Source: an uncultured Nitrospiraceae bacterium
Lineage (GTDB): Bacteria > Hydrogenedentota > Hydrogenedentia > Hydrogenedentales > SLHB01
Direction: 5' to 3'
DNA: 13,633 nt
Assembly (NCBI GenBank): GCA_964425145.1
Contig: CAYRLQ010000098.1
Span: 1-13,633 of the forward strand
The translations under genes and the position numbers were made by a program. The notes beneath the pieces were generated by a model that was not told where the DNA came from, did not search any database, and was given only the letters and a program-made list of their open reading frames with translations. This document shows, piece by piece, positions 1 through 12,822 of the stretch. Position 1 is the first letter of the stretch, and every line of letters starts with the position of its first letter.

Positions 1-232
1 GTCATTACGCCCATTTTACCACCAATCAACTTCGCACTATGCACTGTGCACCGTGCACCGTACACTGTCATTACGCCCATATTGCCACCAATCAACTTCG
101 CACTATGCACTGTGCACCGTACACTGTCATTACGCCCATTTTGTCACCAATCAACTTCGCACTATGCACTGTGCACCGTGCACTGTCATTACGCCCATTT
201 TACCACCAATCAACTTCGCACTATGCACTGTT
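1..232. repeat. Tandem direct repeat with a 59-bp unit, at least 4 copies (66, 59, 59 and 48 bp partial). The array begins at the window edge and probably continues upstream of it.
   Basis: Read directly. The unit gtcattacgcccattttaccaccaatcaacttcgcactatgcactgtgcaccgtacact recurs at 1, 67, 126 and 185 with a few substitutions and one 7-bp internal duplication (gcaccgt) in copy 1. There are no unique spacers between copies, so this is not a CRISPR array. Confidence 0.9.
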
Positions 233-932
233 AAACCCGGACCGCCAAAAAATGGAAATAAGGCAGGAACAGGAATTCCAGACCGTCAGTTAGTTCGACT
301 AACTCAGGTACGGCGAAGATCGAGTCGGGAAGGGCCGACTCCAAGGGCCGGGCCGGGTGAACGCCGCAGGCCACACGGAAGCCGGCGCGCATCAATTCCC
401 CGCCCAACTTGCGTCCGATTTCGATGTCGGCGCCATCGGCTGCAAGGGTCTCAGCAAGCCGTCCCATTTGTCCGTGTTCGGTCGGATGCTCCACCGCCCC
501 GCTGTAATCAGGCTCGGCGGCGGCGATAAGATGCCCGCCGGGAGCGAGAACGCGCCTGAGCTCTGCGAGAATCTCCTTCAAGGGGCGCGCCCAGAGGAAG
601 AACATCTGCGTGAAGACCAGATCGAATGTTGCGTTTTGAAAAGGCAGCGACTCGGCCTGGCCGGCAACGCGCCTCCCGGCGGCGAGACGCAGCGTGCCGA
701 TCTCAGAGTCCACACCTACCGCGAAGCCCCGCGCGCGGCGATCGAGTTCGCAAAGGGTCTCGCCAGTGCCCGCGCCAAGGTCCAGCACACGCCTCTTGGA
801 GGCGATGTTGACCTTGCGCAGCAGCCTGCTGCGCTCGCCGGCAAACCAGGCTGCCTGGCGCCGATAAATCTTTTGCAGGTCCGCGGGCTTCAAGGACTTC
901 CCCTCTAACAACCGGGAACTGACGACTAGCAA
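231..932 (-). CDS. Class I SAM-dependent methyltransferase (Methyltransf_11/25-like), last gene of the operon. TTG start as given in the ORF track; the exact start is uncertain.
   Basis: Translation contains the glycine-rich SAM-binding motif I VLDLGAGTGE, the acidic post-I residue in GVDSE, and LAPGGHLIAAAEP (motif III/post-II), a typical Rossmann-fold MTase layout. A 7-bp gap separates it from the upstream gene. Confidence 0.7.
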   Translation of the reverse strand: MLVVSSRLLEGKSLKPADLQKIYRRQAAWFAGERSRLLRKVNIASKRRVLDLGAGTGETLCELDRRARGFAVGVDSEIGTLRLAAGRRVAGQAESLPFQNATFDLVFTQMFFLWARPLKEILAELRRVLAPGGHLIAAAEPDYSGAVEHPTEHGQMGRLAETLAADGADIEIGRKLGGELMRAGFRVACGVHPARPLESALPDSIFAVPELVELTDGLEFLFLPYFHFLAVRV

Positions 933-939
933 CTATCAG

Positions 940-2775
940 CTACCGTCCGCCACCGGCGCAGGCGCAGGCGCAGGCGCAACCGGCGCAGGCACAGCCTCCT
1001 CCGCCTCCGCCTCCGCTGCCGCCGCCCTCGGACAGTTGTGAGAGAAAGTCGCTGGTGAACTGGTCGAAGCGGGAGAGGTCGAGGCCGCCTTTGGCGGTTC
1101 TGCCTAGCGAGTCGAGGCTGCCCGCCAAGCTGCTACACGTGTTCTCCAGGCGCCCGGCCAGCGAGTTCGCCACATCGCCGAAGGACGTAGCCGGTGTGCT
1201 TGGGCCACGGGATGCACCGGCTCGCCCGGGCGCGGCAGTGTAGGTTCCGTGGCCCCGGCCGTACCACCAGTGGGGATAATAGTGGTGGCCACCGCCGACA
1301 TCCCGGAGCTCGCGGTCCCAGTGGTCCTCCAGCATCAGCCAGCCCAGGTGCTTGTCCACGCGCTTGAAGCCGGCCTCATAGCCGGCCTCGGTCTTTACCT
1401 GCTTCCAGGCCCGGGCGACGATGCGCTTGTAATAGTCACGGGTCTGCTTCAGGTCGAATCCGGCCATGGCGCCCATGGTAAACTTGATGAGGCAATCGAA
1501 CGCATCGTCCAGGTTTATCTCCTCGACCGTTTTCCCTTGCTGGGCCTGGAATGCGTGTATAAAGCCCTTTTCATAGTGCCTGAGCTTCCCGCGCTTTCCG
1601 TCGGGCCGCGTCCAGATGTCCCCTGGCGATTCCTCGCCGGTCACCTCCAGCTTGAGCGGTTTGTCATAGCGGACGCGGACCACGCCCTTCTTGGCCAGGC
1701 CGAAGATGACCATGGTCAACACCTTGTGAAGCGGCACATCGAGGAGGATGGCCGCCTCGACGGAGGTGAGGCCGCGCTTTATTCCACCGCCCTCGATGCA
1801 GAGCTCTGCGGGGAAGTAGCGCTCCTTGCGCCGCGCGCGGAGGATGTACGCCAGTACGCCGAGTGCCACTACGATCGGATACAGGCATAGGTGAAATGTG
1901 GGGCTACGGTACATGCCATAACCCAGAATGACCGTCAGGACGATGAGCACGGACCAGCCGGTCCCGCGAGTGGTCTGGAAGAAGATGATGGCGAAAATCA
2001 CGATGAGCGCAATGCCGCTGATAACCTGGGCTTCCCGGCTGTCCTTGAACCACCTGTTGAAGAGGCCCCAGAGGGTATCCTTTCGCACCGCGCTGACGTA
2101 GCGCTTGGGAAAGGATACGCCGAACACGTGTTTCCCGGTCAGGCGCACGGTGCGCACCCAGGCCGCCGAGACAACCTCCTCGCCTTCCATGACACCCTTG
2201 GCGCTGAATTCCTGGCCCTTCTTATGCCAGAGGATGTCGTCTTTCACGGCTGCATAGTCGGCCTTGGGTATGGGCAGCTTGTAGCGCAGAATCAACTTGG
2301 TATTGCCCACAACGTACTGAGACCCAAACCAGGTGGGCGTAAAACGGAAGGATGCCAGTTCGGGGTTGGTCGTGTCCTGCCAGACCATGTTGCGCTCGCG
2401 CGCGGTAAATTCGAAGACACCGGTTTGGCCCGGGCGGACGGTCTGCGGTCCCAGATGAATCTCGTAGCCGCACCCCTTGGGTTTGAGGTAGGTGGAAATC
2501 TTGATGCTGCTACGCGGAAGCGGCTGGCCGTTGACGCTCGCGCTGCCCGGTGTGTGCGGCGCCATGTTGGGCATGCCGATGTCGACGATGTCGATGGGAT
2601 GGGCGCCGCGGTTGCAACTGAACGTCAGCTTGTAATAGACCAGGGCCGAGCCGTCCTCCTCGATGGTTACGGTGACCTGCGCCTCCGGGACGGAGAATTT
2701 GTATTCCGCGGCCAGCGCGGCACGGGCAGGCATAAGGCCCAGGACCAAAAGTATAACGGGCGCGAGTCCCTTCAT
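940..2775 (-). CDS. DUF2207-like integral membrane protein: signal peptide, large extracytoplasmic domain, 3 TM helices, then a cytoplasmic tail ending in poly-Gly followed by a (Cys-Ala)n repeat.
   Basis: N-terminal signal peptide MKGLAPVILLVLGLMPARAALA. Hydrophobic helices at AQVISGIALIVIFAIIFF, WSVLIVLTVILGYGMY and LYPIVVALGVLAYIL. C-terminus ...SEGGGSGGGGGGGCACAGCACACACAGGGR. The overall architecture and Gly-rich tail are as in Pfam DUF2207 proteins; this family call is from memory, not a search. Its ATG lies 9 nt after a GGAGGG that forms the last codons of the upstream rSAM gene. Confidence 0.5.
   Translation of the reverse strand: MKGLAPVILLVLGLMPARAALAAEYKFSVPEAQVTVTIEEDGSALVYYKLTFSCNRGAHPIDIVDIGMPNMAPHTPGSASVNGQPLPRSSIKISTYLKPKGCGYEIHLGPQTVRPGQTGVFEFTARERNMVWQDTTNPELASFRFTPTWFGSQYVVGNTKLILRYKLPIPKADYAAVKDDILWHKKGQEFSAKGVMEGEEVVSAAWVRTVRLTGKHVFGVSFPKRYVSAVRKDTLWGLFNRWFKDSREAQVISGIALIVIFAIIFFQTTRGTGWSVLIVLTVILGYGMYRSPTFHLCLYPIVVALGVLAYILRARRKERYFPAELCIEGGGIKRGLTSVEAAILLDVPLHKVLTMVIFGLAKKGVVRVRYDKPLKLEVTGEESPGDIWTRPDGKRGKLRHYEKGFIHAFQAQQGKTVEEINLDDAFDCLIKFTMGAMAGFDLKQTRDYYKRIVARAWKQVKTEAGYEAGFKRVDKHLGWLMLEDHWDRELRDVGGGHHYYPHWWYGRGHGTYTAAPGRAGASRGPSTPATSFGDVANSLAGRLENTCSSLAGSLDSLGRTAKGGLDLSRFDQFTSDFLSQLSEGGGSGGGGGGGCACAGCACACACAGGGR
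955..1014. repeat. Hexanucleotide microsatellites inside the 3' end of the DUF2207 gene. (GGCGCA)n at 955..993 encodes the Cys-Ala repeat. (CTCCGC)n at ~994..1014 encodes the poly-Gly run.
   Basis: Read directly: ggcgcaggcgcaggcgcaggcgcaaccggcgcaggcacagcc followed by tcctccgcctccgcctccgct. Confidence 0.8.
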
Positions 2776-2781
2776 GGTCTC

Positions 2782-4191
2782 TTAACCCTCCGATGGACTG
2801 TCAGTGCACAGGAAGCGATCGCCGTCACTGAGCGGACAGCCCGAGCCGCACACCTCGAAGTCCGGACACTCGCGGCACGCGTCAGGGGCTGCATCGCGGC
2901 TGCGAACCTCGCGAAAAAGCGGGCTGTTCCAAATCGACTTCCACTCATCGTCCAGAATGTGGCCGACGGGCTTGTAGTAGCTCTGACATGGGATAACCCG
3001 CCCGTCGGGCTCGATGCAGATGTTGTACTCCGCGGCTGTGCAGCGCTTGAAACCCAGGCCGAAGGTCGTCGGGTTCAGTGTACAGTAGTGAGTGGGGGTG
3101 TACCAGATGAAACGGAGGCCGAGCTTTTCTGCCGTGCCCGTGACCTCGCCGAGAATGGGCTCGAGGTCCGCTTCCTCGATGCCCAGCCCCGATTGGGGGG
3201 CCTTGCCCGTGTATATCAGGGAGTTCATGGCGAATTGCCGCACGCCCAACTCCTTCAGGAACTCGATGGTCTTATCGATCGCTTCAACATTCAGCCTGCA
3301 CAGCGTCGTGTTGGTCACCAGGTAGAGGTCGTCATCGATGGCGTTCTTGATGCCCTGCACCGTCTCCTCGAACGCGCCGGGGCAGCCGACCATCTGGTCG
3401 TGGACCTGCTTATCGTGGCTCTCGATAGTGATTTGCACGTGGTCGAGGCCGGCGGCGCAGAGCTTCCTGACGTACTCGCGGTCAGCGAGCTTCCTGCCAT
3501 TGGTGAGGAGTCCGGTGATAATGCCGATGTCCTCGGCCCGCTCAGTGAGTTCCACGAGATGGGGGCTCAGCGTGGCCTCGCCGCCCGTGAAGCACACGTG
3601 GGGTACGCCTATGCCCCACAGCTTTTCGAGAACATGCTTCCACTCTCTCACGCCGAGAGGCTTTACTTCGTCCGGCCGGCGGGCGACATAGCAGTGCAGG
3701 CACTTGTTGTTGCAGGCGTACGTCAGCGCCAGGTCGGCACGGTAGGGCGCCGAGACCTTCCGACCGAAAGGCGGCACAGTGGATACACCCAAGTTGGCGA
3801 CCGGACAGGCGTCCTCCGTGGTCTCCAACTGCTCTACGACCTTGAGGACCTTCCCGTAGTCGCGCGCCACCTCCTCGTGGGCGGCCCGGTAGACCTTACG
3901 CACCGCCGCCACCGCCTCATCCCTGCTCTTGCCGTCGAGGACCTGCTTCATGAGCGCCACGGCGGTTGCGTTGAGGTGCAGCACACCGGACGCGTTCACA
4001 GCCAGAAGGCCCGAGCCGTCCGGGTCCACGCGCAGGTGCAGGCGCAGATAGCGGTCGGCCAATTCGCGGCGGTAATGATAGATGCCGGGCTGCACAGCCT
4101 CGGCACCGGCGAAGAGCCGTTGGAACTTCTCACGCAGGCCTACCATTTGGGTGCCTCCTCGATCTGGTACTCGGATTGGCAGAAAGGGCAT
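2782..4191 (-). CDS. Radical SAM / SPASM-domain enzyme with a fused N-terminal PqqD-like RRE (RiPP recognition element); a peptide- or protein-modifying maturase. Alternative start at 4146 (MVGLREK...), which overlaps the upstream stop in ATGGTAG.
   Basis: CX3CX2C radical-SAM cluster motif (ALTYACNNKCLHCYV). C-terminal SPASM signature CRECPDFEVCGSGC (CX2CX5CX3C), preceded by CTAAEYNICIEPDGRVIPC and followed by FLC. The N-terminal ~120 aa (LRVDPDGSGLLAVNASGVLHLNATAVALMKQVLDGKSRDEAVAAV) match the PqqD/RRE fold pattern. The same domain order is found in AlbA/SuiB/CteB-type enzymes. Confidence 0.85.
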   Translation of the reverse strand: MPFLPIRVPDRGGTQMVGLREKFQRLFAGAEAVQPGIYHYRRELADRYLRLHLRVDPDGSGLLAVNASGVLHLNATAVALMKQVLDGKSRDEAVAAVRKVYRAAHEEVARDYGKVLKVVEQLETTEDACPVANLGVSTVPPFGRKVSAPYRADLALTYACNNKCLHCYVARRPDEVKPLGVREWKHVLEKLWGIGVPHVCFTGGEATLSPHLVELTERAEDIGIITGLLTNGRKLADREYVRKLCAAGLDHVQITIESHDKQVHDQMVGCPGAFEETVQGIKNAIDDDLYLVTNTTLCRLNVEAIDKTIEFLKELGVRQFAMNSLIYTGKAPQSGLGIEEADLEPILGEVTGTAEKLGLRFIWYTPTHYCTLNPTTFGLGFKRCTAAEYNICIEPDGRVIPCQSYYKPVGHILDDEWKSIWNSPLFREVRSRDAAPDACRECPDFEVCGSGCPLSDGDRFLCTDSPSEG

Positions 4192-4487
4192 TTCACGAAG
4201 ATCGCCCCGGCCCGAACCGAAACGCTCTTTGCGTCGAGGGCCGCGCCGCAGCTCTTACAGTTGAGTTCTTCGAGTTGCACGTCGCCGGACAGGTCGATCT
4301 TTCGGGTAACGGTGACCTTGGTCTCTGGCACTTTCATCCGCAGGAAGTAGATCACGGCTATCCCCGCACCGGTCAGGATGCCGCCAAGAATCCAGCGCGG
4401 CCAAATGCCGCTGCTGGCTGCTGCAACGCAGAACATGAGGCCTAATAGCACTAACAAGCCGGCGAAAAGATACCCGACAATCTTCAT
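4140..4487 (-). CDS. Small membrane protein with two N-terminal TM helices and a C-terminal zinc ribbon (CxxC-x18-CxxC).
   Basis: Hydrophobic segments IVGYLFAGLLVLLGLMFCVAAA and ILGGILTGAGIAVIYFL. Zinc ribbon CKSCGAALD...KCPFCQ. ATG at 4487, 17 nt after the stop of the SPFH gene. Its stop overlaps the 4146 start of the rSAM gene. Confidence 0.6.
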   Translation of the reverse strand: MKIVGYLFAGLLVLLGLMFCVAAASSGIWPRWILGGILTGAGIAVIYFLRMKVPETKVTVTRKIDLSGDVQLEELNCKSCGAALDAKSVSVRAGAIFVKCPFCQSEYQIEEAPKW

Positions 4488-8002: not shown

Positions 8003-8617
8003 TCAGGCGCCGCCTGCTGAGTCCTCGGGCTGCTCGGCGGGTGTAGGTTGTTGTTCAGCCGGGACCGGCTCGGGCGCCACGGTGACGGTCACCGTGCCAG
8101 GCGGCTCGGTGGTTTCCCCAGGTGCGGCCCCTTCGGTGGGAGGCACTTCCGGCGGTACGGTAACGGTCACTTCGCCGGCCTGCTCAGCGGCTCCCTCAGG
8201 TGGCGGGGGCACCGCTTTTTCCCCCGGGACAGCCTCGGAACCCTCGACGGCCGTGCCGAGGTCATCGAGCATGTCGTCGAGGCTTTCTCCTAATACGCCC
8301 ATCTCTCCCAGGACATCGGCCTCTTCGACCTTGTCCGGGGCGATGCCCTTGCCAAGGCGCCCCGATACCAGGGACATGGCCAAGGCGAGGATCATGAACA
8401 CGGCGGCCATGACGTGGGTCAGCCGAACGGGCAGACTCTGGCTTGCCCGGGGACCGAACACCGTGTCCGAGCCGGGGCCGATGCCAAATGCGCCGGCGAA
8501 GCCGGTCCCTTTGCCCTTTTGCAACAGGACAATCACGATGAGGCCGGCGCAACTGGGCACGTAGAGGATCAACATCAGCCACCACAACGTTTCCCAACGC
8601 CAGATGAATTCCCACAT
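8003..8617 (-). CDS. secG: Preprotein translocase subunit SecG with an unusually long (~110 aa) Pro/Thr/Glu/Val-rich low-complexity C-terminal extension.
   Basis: SecG signature LLQKGKGTGFAGAFGIGPGSDTVFGPRASQ....THVMAAVFMILALAMSLV, with two TM helices. Position immediately after tpiA (27-bp gap) matches the conserved tpiA-secG synteny. SD AAGGAAAA lies upstream of the ATG at 8617. Confidence 0.75.
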   Translation of the reverse strand: MWEFIWRWETLWWLMLILYVPSCAGLIVIVLLQKGKGTGFAGAFGIGPGSDTVFGPRASQSLPVRLTHVMAAVFMILALAMSLVSGRLGKGIAPDKVEEADVLGEMGVLGESLDDMLDDLGTAVEGSEAVPGEKAVPPPPEGAAEQAGEVTVTVPPEVPPTEGAAPGETTEPPGTVTVTVAPEPVPAEQQPTPAEQPEDSAGGA

Positions 8618-9536: not shown

Positions 9537-9761
9537 CTAAGTACCGCTCAACACAATTAAGATCACACAATGGGGCGGAGTATATCCCCAGCACGTCATT
9601 GCGAGGAGCGAAGCGACGCGGCAATCTCGCTCCGGCCAAGTCCTTGCACTTAAGGAGATTGCCGCGCTCCCTGCGGTCGCTCGCAATGACGGGGGCGGTG
9701 GTTGCCTCCCGCAAGCCGCTGAACCCGATTTGTGGCCTTATTTGTGTTGAGCAGTACTAAG
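9537..9761. mobile_element. MITE-like non-coding element: 25-bp terminal inverted repeats (CTAAGTACCGCTCAACACAATTAAG ... CTTATTTGTGTTGAGCAGTACTAAG) enclosing an internal long imperfect palindrome (arms 9595..9628 and 9655..9690).
   Basis: Read directly. Outer arms match 22/25 as reverse complements. Inner arms share perfect 11-bp (gtcattgcgag) and 13-bp (cgcggcaatctc) segments around an internal mismatch bubble. No plausible ORF; sits in the 434-bp divergent intergenic region. Confidence 0.4.
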
Positions 9762-9834
9762 TGCGAGGCGCGAAGTGCTGAGTGCGCGAAGGTGGAGCGT
9801 CGGCGTACCGCCCATGCACTGAAGGAGAGGAACG

Positions 9835-11316
9835 ATGAGAAAATGGAGCTTGATGATTCTATTGACAGTGCTCGTTGCCATTGCGAGCCAGGCCGAGCTG
9901 CAGAATGTCGAGGCTGGTCCGGTTATACAGCGCCGACTCGACGTGAAGCTCGTGGATCCGCTCAAAGGCGCGTTCGAGGGGGCCGAGACGACCCTCGAGA
10001 ACCAAACAGACCTTGCCGTGACCGTGTATAATAACAACCTGGCGCTCGTGCGGGACCGGCGCAAGGTCGAGCTGTATCCGGGCCATGTTTCGTTGCAGTT
10101 TGCGGATGTCGCACAACAAATCCGGCCGGAAACGGTGAGCCTGGAGTCAATTTCGGAGCCGGGAAAGCTGCATATCCTGGAACAGAACTATGAGTATGAC
10201 CTGATGAGCCCGTCAAAGTTGATGGAGAAATACGTTGGGAAACCGGTGCGGCTGGTGAATTTCAGCACGGAGATCGGGTTCACCGAGGTCGAGGCGCAAC
10301 TGTTGAGCATCAATGAGGGCCCGATCTACCAGGTGGGCGATGAAATCTACCTTGGACATCCGGGCCACGTGGTGCTGCCGGAAATCCCCGAGAACCTGAT
10401 CGCGAAGCCGTCGCTGATCTGGCTCCTGGACAATGATGGCACGGACCATGAGATCGAGGTGACATACCTGACCGGCGGCATCGACTGGCGTGCGGATTAC
10501 GTGATCACGCTGGACCGCGACGAGACCACGATGGACCTGACGGGCTGGGTGACCCTCAAGAATCAATCAGGCGCGACGTATACCAATACGCGGTTGAAAG
10601 TGGTCGCGGGCGAGGTACACATCGCGCAACCGGCCGTCAGAGAAGCCTATGGCCGCGGCGGGCGGATGCTCGCGGCCAAGGTCGCTCCGATGCGCGAGGA
10701 AACGTTTGCGGAATATCATCTGTACACACTCCCGCGCCGGACCACGATCAAAGAGAACCAATCCAAACAGGTGAACCTGCTCAGCGCTGCGGGAATTCGC
10801 GCGAAGAAGGTATACGAGTTTCGCGGCAACGAATCGTTCTATAGCGGACCCGTGCCACCCCTGAAGGACCAGAAAGTGGCAGTGTTTCTCAAATTCACTA
10901 ACAAGAAGGAGAATCAATTGGGCATTCCCCTGCCGGCGGGCGTGATGCGGATTTACCAGGAGGACAGCGAGGGGATGCGGCAGTTCGCGGGCGAGGATCG
11001 CATCAAGCATACGCCCAAGGACGAGGATGTGAGGCTGCGGATGGGCAACGCGTTCGATGTGGTCGGCGAGCGCGTGCAGACCGATTACGAGCGTGTCGCG
11101 GAAAAGGTGCACGAATCGGCCTTCGAGATCAAAATCCGCAACCACAAAGAAAACGACATTACCGTGGATATCGTCGAACCGATGACGGGCGATTGGAAGA
11201 TCCTGAGCAAGTCCCACGACTTCGTGAAAAAAGATGCGCGCACGGCCGTGTTCTCCGTCCCCGTGGCCCAGGACGGCGAAGCGGTGGTGACTTACCGCGT
11301 CCGTGTCAGGTATTAG
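9835..11316 (+). CDS. Secreted DUF4139/DUF4140-domain protein (TIGR02231 'mucoidy inhibitor MuiA'-like family).
   Basis: Signal peptide MRKWSLMILLTVLVAIASQA; SD GGAGAGG 5 nt upstream of the ATG. Long β-rich protein with motifs recalled from DUF4139 proteins: VTYLTGGIDWRADYV, MDLTGWVTLKNQSGATYTNTRLKVVAGEV. Family call is from memory. Confidence 0.55.
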   Translation: MRKWSLMILLTVLVAIASQAELQNVEAGPVIQRRLDVKLVDPLKGAFEGAETTLENQTDLAVTVYNNNLALVRDRRKVELYPGHVSLQFADVAQQIRPETVSLESISEPGKLHILEQNYEYDLMSPSKLMEKYVGKPVRLVNFSTEIGFTEVEAQLLSINEGPIYQVGDEIYLGHPGHVVLPEIPENLIAKPSLIWLLDNDGTDHEIEVTYLTGGIDWRADYVITLDRDETTMDLTGWVTLKNQSGATYTNTRLKVVAGEVHIAQPAVREAYGRGGRMLAAKVAPMREETFAEYHLYTLPRRTTIKENQSKQVNLLSAAGIRAKKVYEFRGNESFYSGPVPPLKDQKVAVFLKFTNKKENQLGIPLPAGVMRIYQEDSEGMRQFAGEDRIKHTPKDEDVRLRMGNAFDVVGERVQTDYERVAEKVHESAFEIKIRNHKENDITVDIVEPMTGDWKILSKSHDFVKKDARTAVFSVPVAQDGEAVVTYRVRVRY

Positions 11317-11412
11317 ATAGTTTCTGCTGCGGAAAGGCCAACGGATTGGGACAAGGGTTCTTTTACTATCATCCTGAGCGACGCGAAAGGTCTCGAAACA
11401 CCGTAAACCCTT

Positions 11413-11432
11413 GTGAAATCGAGGTTTTTCAC
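11413..11432 (+). terminator. Candidate hairpin (GTGAAA/TTTCAC stem, U-containing loop) downstream of the DUF4139 gene. A larger 9-bp stem (acaagggtt / aacccttgt) with a 46-nt loop lies at 11351..11414.
   Basis: Inverted repeats read directly. No clean U-tract after the stem, so terminator function is uncertain. Confidence 0.2.
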
Positions 11433-11464
11433 TGCTCTTAGAATGACCGTGAGGGGTGGCTTTG

Positions 11465-12109
11465 ATGAGAACGCTGACAGCGGCGCAGATGCGCGAGGCT
11501 GACAGGCGATGTATTGAAGATATCGGCATTCCCGGCGCAGTGTTGATGAATAGTGCCGGGGGCGCGGTATTCCGCGAGATCGATCGAGGACCGGTCGGCG
11601 TGGTTTGCGGAAAAGGCAATAACGGCGGGGACGGGTACGTGGTCGCGCGGCTGGCCATACTGGCAGGATTTGAAACCCGTGTAGTACTGCTGGCGAGGCC
11701 CGATGAGATTCGGGGTGACGCGGCGACGTTTATGCAGGTGTACCAGAATCTGGGCGGCGAGATTCTGAGCGTAATCGAGGAGGACGCGGCGGAGGAGGCC
11801 GTTGCGGGATTGAAAGATTGCGCCGTGTTAGTGGACGCGCTCTTGGGAACAGGGATAACCGGCACGGTGCACGGACCAGCTCGTGCAGCCATCGAGGCGT
11901 GGCCGGCCGTGCGGACGATTGCGGTGGACTTGCCCTCGGGGCTCAACGCGGACACTGGTGAGGTTTGCGGATGTTGCGTCAAGGCTGATGTGACCGTGAC
12001 TTTTGGGTTCGCTAAGAAGGGTTTTGAAAATCCCACAGCCCGGAACTATATCGGCCGCTTGGTCGTGGCGGACATCGGCATTCCGGAAGTCTGCGCCGAA
12101 GGGTTGTAA
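11465..12109 (+). CDS. nnrE: NAD(P)H-hydrate epimerase (YjeF N-terminal domain only; not fused to the ADP-dependent dehydratase domain).
   Basis: Diagnostic YjeF_N motif VVCGKGNNGGDGYVVAR. SD GAGGGG lies 8 nt upstream of the ATG at 11465; the track's 11456 GTG start is less well placed. The protein is only ~214 aa, so no C-terminal carbohydrate-kinase-like dehydratase domain is present. Confidence 0.75.
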   Translation: MRTLTAAQMREADRRCIEDIGIPGAVLMNSAGGAVFREIDRGPVGVVCGKGNNGGDGYVVARLAILAGFETRVVLLARPDEIRGDAATFMQVYQNLGGEILSVIEEDAAEEAVAGLKDCAVLVDALLGTGITGTVHGPARAAIEAWPAVRTIAVDLPSGLNADTGEVCGCCVKADVTVTFGFAKKGFENPTARNYIGRLVVADIGIPEVCAEGL

Positions 12110-12267: not shown

Positions 12268-12822
12268 GTGCGGACATTTATTGCGATCGAGCTGCCGAAA
12301 GCGGTGAAAGAGGCACTCGGGGCGCTGAGCAACCGGTTGCGTCGGTCTGGGGCGAAGGCGACCTGGGTGCAGCCTGAGAACGTACACCTGACGCTCCGGT
12401 TTCTGGGGGATGTGTCGGAAAGCGTCGTAAACAAGCTGGGCGAGCGCCTGGCCGTGGCCTACCAGGATTTGGAACCATTCACGTTGTCGATGGCGCGCAC
12501 GGGCGCGTTTCCGAACCTGCGCAGGCCGCGTGTGATTTGGGTGGGTGTGGGGCCGCTCGAGGGCGGACTGGCCGAGGCGCAGGCCATTGCCGAGGAAGCC
12601 GCGGTGTGGGTGGGGCTTGCACCCGAGAAGAGGCGGTTCCAGCCGCACTTGACCGTGGCGCGCATCCGGGACGCACGCGAACTTGGCGGCCTACCGATGT
12701 GCCTGGCCCAGGAAGCAGATTTCGCTGGTGGTGAATTCGTGGTGGAGAATGTGTCATTATTCTCGAGTCGGTTAACCCCGAATGGCCCCGTTTATCGGCG
12801 ATTAAAAGAGTTTTGTCTGTGA
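12268..12822 (+). CDS. thpR: RNA 2',3'-cyclic phosphodiesterase (2H phosphoesterase, LigT/ThpR family), GTG start.
   Basis: Two H-x-T-x motifs in the right context (HLTLRFLG and HLTVARI). N-terminus RTFIAIELP is typical of ThpR. 184 aa. Confidence 0.8.
   Translation: MRTFIAIELPKAVKEALGALSNRLRRSGAKATWVQPENVHLTLRFLGDVSESVVNKLGERLAVAYQDLEPFTLSMARTGAFPNLRRPRVIWVGVGPLEGGLAEAQAIAEEAAVWVGLAPEKRRFQPHLTVARIRDARELGGLPMCLAQEADFAGGEFVVENVSLFSSRLTPNGPVYRRLKEFCL

Follow-up and report, generated by a model that had tools for sequence, protein, structure and literature searches.

A tandem array of 59-bp units in the spacer before a secreted-protein gene of an uncultured Hydrogenedentota bacterium

The stretch of DNA analysed here (13,633 nucleotides from an uncultured member of the Hydrogenedentota, hereafter the window) opens inside a long-unit tandem repeat, and the question raised by the locus is whether this array encodes something, acts on the genes beside it, or does neither. 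An earlier reading of the letters (the original prediction) preferred a non-coding minisatellite, and that preference is supported by our analysis, in which the array gave no coding, RNA-family, terminator or per-unit structure signal. We consider it probable that the array is a non-coding, locus-specific minisatellite that fills the spacer before the gene for a 923-aa secreted protein.

Build and extent of the array

The repeat is arranged head to tail, with units that begin at window positions 1, 67, 126 and 185 (Table 1). At least four uniform 59-bp copies had been predicted; the tandem array is real, but its units measure 66, 59, 59 and 47 bp and amount to 3.7-3.9 copies in the window. The 28-mer CACCAATCAACTTCGCACTATGCACTGT is invariant and occurs four times in the window (expected 0.00). 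Each unit consists of ∼ 31 bp of unique sequence (CATTACGCCCATTTTACCACCAATCAACTTC) and 4-5 imperfect heptads with a GTGCAC core, which in the 59-bp units run GCACTAT, GCACTGT, GCACCGT, ACACTGT. Whole-unit identity among the copies is 93-100%, the edge copy being more diverged, and the differences between copies fall mostly at one hexamer (TTTTAC, ATATTG or TTTTGT) and at one heptad position. The array has a GC content of 0.48 (0.61 in the remainder of the window), with little G on its plus strand.

Table 1. Features of the array and its two flanking genes. Positions are those of the window unless the spanning contig L008 is named.
Feature	Position	Strand	Remarks
Tandem array within the window	1-231	.	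3.7-3.9 copies
Full array	L008 2860-3131		272 bp, ∼ 4.6 copies
Unit c1	1-66	.	66 bp; one additional GCACCGT heptad
Unit c2	67-125	.	59 bp; A at position 81, where L008 and L009 have T
Unit c3	126-184	.	59 bp
Unit c4	185-231	.	47 bp, truncated; shares its final base with the methyltransferase stop codon
Heptad tract of unit c1	34-68	.	GCACTAT GCACTGT GCACCGT GCACCGT ACACTGT
Equivalent heptad tracts of the other units	100-127, 159-186, 218-231		
Class I SAM methyltransferase gene	231-893	-	220 aa as called on L002 and L007
923-aa secreted protein gene	L008 81-2852	-	no Pfam or NCBIfam match
Extended -10-like TGGTAAAAT	13-21	-	61-69 nt upstream of the 923-aa gene ATG; consensus match only
Second TGGTAAAAT copy	197-205	-	consensus match only
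Sigma-70-like ATGACA-17-CATAGT, 9/12	102-130	-	consensus match only
Second ATGACA-17-CATAGT copy	161-189	-	consensus match only
Mini-ORF MGVMTVHGAQCIVRS	151-198	-	GGTGG upstream; candidate
Second mini-ORF	92-139	-	a fusion of 37 codons begins at 80

Among metagenome contigs, two from this locus, L008 and L009, contained an exact 20-mer of the array. L008 (4,809 bp) crosses the whole array with unique sequence at both sides and so supplies the upstream extension that the original prediction had called for, whereas the end of L009 falls inside the array. The window and L008 align over 1,909 bp with a single mismatch (window 81, unit 2); window base 1 corresponds to L008 2901, whereas the start of the array is near L008 2860. 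The original prediction held that the array was cut by the window edge and probably had more copies than could be seen. It does continue past base 1, but only by ∼ 41 bp, as one additional, more diverged partial copy at the left (L008 2860-2900), which brings the total to ∼ 4.6 copies as read from the one spanning contig.

Two more contigs, from other samples, end 30-35 nt into the array, and the repeat therefore breaks short-read assemblies. With several contigs breaking there, such assemblies could also have collapsed a longer array. Together with the fact that the window begins within the array, these breaks might point to an artefact of assembly, in which the de Bruijn graph looped at the end of a contig. 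However, three independent assemblies (the window, L008 and L009) contain the array and agree on the order of the variants (the copy-specific variants are in identical order in L008 and L009), and one of the three spans it with unique flanks; an artefact is thus exceedingly improbable. No copy-number or length variation, as expected of the phase-variation role that had been listed as one possibility, was seen among the three assemblies, which differ by one SNP.

Plus-strand frames and searches for known elements

All three plus-strand frames are open across the array, as originally predicted, and all three minus-strand frames contain stops, where only two of them had been reported closed. The openness of the plus strand is no more than chance provides. 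A stop-free 59-mer arose in 7.6% of shuffles of the unit's mononucleotides and in 50% of those that preserved its dinucleotides, and 14% of random 59-mers drawn at genome composition had no stop. Because the copies are one unit repeated and not independent, the open frames (chance P ∼ 0.08-0.5) are not evidence of coding.

The gene for a radical SAM/SPASM enzyme with a PqqD-like domain lies 2.5 kb from the array, and the original prediction had kept as its fallback a repetitive Cys-rich coding role linked to this enzyme. On this reading the plus strand, with no stop in any frame, would specify a Cys/His-rich repeat peptide that might be a substrate of the enzyme. Several observations speak against it. 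Any plus-strand ORF that crosses the array is antisense to the operon as well as to the genes on either side. Since neither 59 nor 66 bp is a multiple of 3, the reading frame rotates from copy to copy and the 'repeat peptide' is a different one in each copy. Pfam gave no match to the long plus-strand ORF that crosses the array (L008 2029-3429), and an exact look-up found no gene call on record for the plus-strand array product (84-aa ORF). An exhaustive HMMER search of 1.84 billion representatives gave five weak matches to the plus-strand translation (best E 3.8e-10). The two best of these, when inspected, were repeat-on-repeat alignments with other repetitive ORFs, at 33-37% identity over ∼ 36 aa; the E-values are sums over repeated stretches, and no protein family lies behind them. 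Of the properties of a RiPP precursor (a unit that is a multiple of 3, a start signal, location on the operon strand, homologues), the array lacks the unit length, the strand and any credible homologue, and relatives that carry the neighbouring gene cassette do so without the array (see below). The coding reading is effectively refuted, with next to no probability left to it, and a tempting wrong lead, that of a Cys-rich repeat peptide made for the nearby radical SAM enzyme, is removed.

Searches against known kinds of element were likewise negative. The array had no match in Rfam at E<=1, ARAGORN found no tRNA or tmRNA, and no intrinsic terminator was predicted at the array, which leaves the proposed transcription boundary element without support. 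Single units folded no better than shuffles (RNA and DNA, both strands as DNA; z -0.3 to -0.6). Only when two units or the whole minus-strand RNA were folded did z fall to -1.6 to -2.3, as the quasi-palindromic heptad tracts of adjacent units pair. With Rfam and ARAGORN empty and no fold signal per unit, the array does not look like a structured RNA.

CRISPR arrays were dismissed since the whole 59-bp unit is repeated head to tail and there are no unique spacers. REP and BIME elements are short imperfect palindromic units, occur in clusters of alternating orientation and are associated with RAYT; here all copies are direct, single units fold like shuffles and the window has no Y1 transposase. 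Iterons are 17-22-bp direct repeats beside a rep gene or origin. The iteron-like array of the original prediction is not borne out, the unit being 59 bp long with no rep gene nearby and no similarity to plasmid or phage records. The integron attC site, or '59-base element', was considered for its unit length and for the GTTAAAC at the array end, and was discarded since the unit lacks both an internal imperfect palindrome and an inverse core, and an integrase is missing. The units do not appear to be decayed copies of the ribosome-binding site and start of the downstream gene either: outside the common TTGATTGNTGG, 6/22 positions match, as in random sequence.

An exact 28-mer scan of GTDB representative genomes did not find the repeat unit, viral contigs held no copy of it, and in the scanned metagenome contigs it occurred at one locus alone. 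The single locus is that of exact 20-mer and 28-mer scans of collections that do not include the window's own contig.

Flanking genes, relatives and the sense strand

The genes around the array all lie on the minus strand. At its right, the TAA stop codon of the methyltransferase gene (window 233-231) shares its final base with the array. This gene is the last of a conserved cassette in the order 115-aa protein, rSAM/SPASM enzyme, 611-aa protein, methyltransferase. At its left, just outside the window, L008 carries the minus-strand gene for the 923-aa secreted protein, which starts with an ATG at L008 2852, has GGAGGGG 4 nt upstream of it and encodes a signal-peptide-like N-terminus. The array occupies the entire 278-bp spacer from the methyltransferase stop codon to the Shine-Dalgarno sequence of this co-directional gene. 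Its placement at the 3' end of the operon, as originally described, is right with respect to the methyltransferase, but the array is equally the whole 5' upstream region of the 923-aa gene.

The cassette itself (window 231-4487, minus strand) is poorly covered by known families. The 115-aa protein has two TM segments and a CxxC...CxxC zinc ribbon; the rSAM/SPASM enzyme has a PqqD-like N-terminus and scores under every NCBIfam cut-off, so that the Cys-targeting ascribed to it in the original prediction is at most putative; the 611-aa protein is uncharacterised and has no Pfam match; and the methyltransferase is DVU_1556-like, with a match below the NCBIfam cut-off. Hexamer repeats at window 955-1026 (GGCGCA x4, CCTCCG x3) encode the Ala/Gly/Pro/Glu-rich C-terminal tail of the 611-aa protein. 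Elsewhere in the window, the SecG ORF (8003-8617, minus) is unusually long at 204 aa and matches Pfam SecG over residues 15-83 only. Two further ORFs overlap on opposite strands (9835-11316, plus, and 10567-12036, minus); since the Pfam match (DUF4139/DUF4140) is confined to the plus-strand ORF, the 489-aa minus-strand ORF is probably a shadow ORF.

Loci of relatives were obtained from protein homologues and the contigs that encode them. The names that homologues bear place the organism in Candidatus Hydrogenedentes/Hydrogenedentota. The 611-aa protein has many homologues in Hydrogenedentes (best 65% identity), and the four-gene cassette is conserved there in differing genomic neighbourhoods. 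The same four genes were found in two relatives (three loci, with L012 and L013 being one genome stretch); they are followed by a BD-FAE/Big_5 protein in one and by an opposite-strand Y1 transposase in the other. A short contig, L014, carries only the 611-aa gene of the cassette, directly followed by an MFS transporter. No tandem array lies downstream in any of the three relatives (four loci, L012-L015). It is also absent from the locus of the nearest homologue of the 923-aa protein, which has a different neighbourhood, and a protein-guided scan of GTDB representatives with the 611-aa neighbour gave no confirmed relative. Judged from these sequences, the array is private to this lineage and locus, and the search for further copies, which the original prediction had proposed for the genome and relatives, led back to the one locus in the collections scanned.

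The nearest homologue of the 923-aa protein, P0001, is 66% identical from residue ∼ 55 on, and the protein is without the ∼ 250-aa N-terminal domain of its 1090-1250-aa Hydrogenedentes homologues. Residues 24-55 are a low-complexity linker that is partly encoded by a GCACAGA/GCACAGT heptad tract inside the 5' coding region (L008 2704-2738), and homology starts directly after this linker. L009 is without 19 nt (ACCGGCAGCCATTCGGAGC) at ∼ 1832 (L008 2580-2598), within the coding region; the deletion causes a frameshift with a stop after ∼ 117 codons and is either a strain-level pseudogene variant or an assembly error. With its N-terminal domain missing and a frameshift variant on record, the gene looks to be under relaxed constraint, and the domain loss, the heptads and the L009 deletion together suggest a region that is prone to slippage and was rearranged recently.

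The unit tail recurs as an inverted partial copy (ATAGTGC x2; L008 47-71), which matches L008 3111-3135 over 25 nt at 80%. This copy lies just past the stop codon of the 923-aa gene and directly precedes the Shine-Dalgarno sequence of the next minus-strand gene (ATG at L008 36). The array and this copy bracket the 923-aa gene, and they might be remnants of a mobile or rearranged cassette that mark the junction at which the N-terminal domain was lost. The resumption of homology right after the heptad-encoded linker would fit, as would the variable neighbourhoods of the rSAM cassette among relatives, once beside a Y1 transposase. However, the exact core of the inverted match is 12 nt, with an E of 0.64 even in a small local database. 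Neither the window nor L008 contains a transposase or integrase, no target-site duplication was identified, and the unit was not found at other loci, whereas elements of the BrickBuilt type are multi-copy. We therefore regard such a remnant as decidedly improbable.

The sense strand of the array carries promoter-like matches, all scored on a consensus that is possibly not valid for Hydrogenedentota. The extended -10 pattern TGNTAWAAT has two sense-strand matches in the window and L008, both inside array units (expected 0.06-0.13), and there are two sites like ATGACA-17-CATAGT in the units (expected 0.3 per region). The hexamer at which the copies vary coincides with the -10-like element. These matches raise the possibility that the array is a cis-regulatory region of the 923-aa gene, with a promoter in each unit, or heptads that act as regulator sites, or both, and with expression tuned by copy number. 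The position of the gene-proximal extended -10 match (Table 1) would suit this role. Related heptads precede both the Shine-Dalgarno sequence of the gene that follows the 923-aa gene (L008 47-71) and the DUF4139 gene, and the 923-aa gene itself has further tracts at its 3' side and within its 5' coding region. A similar role as regulator sites has been proposed in Beggiatoaceae for heptamer repeats that immediately precede start codons (PMC4679880).

The weight of the promoter-like matches is reduced by their repetition: since a single unit has been copied, they count as roughly one event at chance level (P ∼ 0.1). The heptads are not clearly enriched in the rest of the 13.6-kb window, where GTGC/GCAC heptads form three runs of two (0.9 expected) and no run of three or more. 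Heptad tracts upstream of genes are limited, in the 13.6 kb available, to the two flanks of the 923-aa gene and one weak tract at window 9759-9791. The array also shows no copy-number polymorphism among the assemblies and is not conserved in relatives. A cis-regulatory role is thus possible, if on balance unlikely. Its fuller version, in which the units would be a copy-number-tunable leader or promoter module and the heptads sites for a Hydrogenedentota-specific DNA- or RNA-binding regulator with a lineage-specific heptad regulon, analogous to that proposed for TAACTGA repeats, we consider improbable. Were the heptads regulator sites, or the array variable in length, this would be the first cis-regulatory or contingency element described in uncultured Hydrogenedentota.

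The weak tract at window 9759-9791 is a 16-nt tandem repeat (x2.2; AAGTGCTGAGTGCGCG) in the intergenic region of the divergent TIM and DUF4139 genes, 45-75 nt upstream of the DUF4139 ATG (9835), and its AGTGCnn heptads resemble the sense strand of the array. L010, another Hydrogenedentes contig, has period-7 repeats, AGTGATG x3.1 (11710-11731) and AATTCAT x5.3 (12285-12321), that flank a 23S_rRNA_IVP gene. Intergenic heptad microsatellites may be common in this phylum.

Origin of the array and comparison with known repeat systems

For the minisatellite that we favour, a simple origin can be proposed. The quasi-palindromic heptad microsatellite with its GTGCAC core could have nucleated replication slippage or unequal recombination and so given rise to the array, whose expansion would be limited by the coding constraints at both flanks. 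The 66-bp unit is one heptad slip from the 59-bp unit. As quoted in PMC4679880, heptanucleotide repeats are reported to be commoner than other long simple repeats in most surveyed prokaryote genomes and to be prone to slippage (Mrazek 2007). The array itself showed no such instability among the three assemblies, where copy number did not vary. The array would be transcribed on the minus strand, either from promoter-like sites within the units or by read-through from the rSAM operon, which we consider because no terminator is predicted. It would then serve as the 5' leader of the downstream gene; from the arrangement of the genes, minus-strand transcription as the leader of the 923-aa gene is probable. 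Any effect on expression through leader length or the number of promoter-like modules is probably small.

Every unit has a 15-codon, ATG-started sense-strand mini-ORF, MGVMTV[H/Y]GAQCIVRS, with GGTGG at 5 nt. The array, with its tandem 59-bp unit between co-directional genes, could by this feature be an intercistronic element like MIRU, whose ORF is coupled to the neighbouring downstream gene at -4 nt (PMC12548453), and translational coupling through the mini-ORFs would pass ribosomes on from the methyltransferase gene to the 923-aa gene. Against this, stop and start codons do not overlap with those of the neighbours: the first mini-ORF begins 32 nt past the methyltransferase stop and the last ends 14 nt before the 923-aa ATG, unlike the -4 spacing of MIRU. 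GGTGG would make a poor Shine-Dalgarno sequence, two mini-ORFs are fused in the 66-bp unit, and there are no diverged copies on which a coding constraint could be tested. A relay of this kind is very improbable.

There is nevertheless a general likeness to MIRU, since in both a tandem unit of ∼ 50-100 bp (40-100 bp for MIRU-like repeats) exactly fills the gap between co-directional genes and carries small sense-strand ORFs. Unlike MIRU, which form a dispersed family in a different phylum, the array is at a single locus among the metagenome contigs, GTDB representatives and viral contigs scanned, and its mini-ORFs are uncoupled.

The BrickBuilt MITE of Porphyromonas gingivalis is also an intergenic, spacer-less tandem array with promoter-like elements. 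Its unit is 23 nt long, its defined leader and tail subunits have inverted ends, and a genome carries 19 copies of it (PMC4596501). In contrast, the present array is at one locus and has only a weak inverted match of 12-25 nt.

The heptads relate the array to the TAACTGA repeats of Beggiatoaceae and Cyanobacteria and to cyanobacterial STRR, the heptanucleotide simple repeats. Here, too, 4-5 direct heptads, imperfect ones, are found per unit on the sense strand of a 5' upstream region, and a related heptad tract stands just before the Shine-Dalgarno sequence of the next gene. The differences are that the heptads of the array are imperfect and embedded in a higher-order unit of 59 bp, and that the 13.6 kb available showed no sign of a genome-wide family.

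The closest correspondence is with bacterial minisatellites (VNTR). Like these, the array consists of a non-coding unit in the 10-100-bp range, repeated head to tail in near-identical copies with a diverged copy at the edge, and it breaks short-read assemblies. It departs from minisatellites in general in that its unit is a heptad microsatellite joined to a unique part, and in that no length polymorphism was seen among the three assemblies. The array explains the breaks in this organism's assemblies and has little importance beyond its locus; it is an ordinary new instance of a feature already known, the bacterial intergenic minisatellite.
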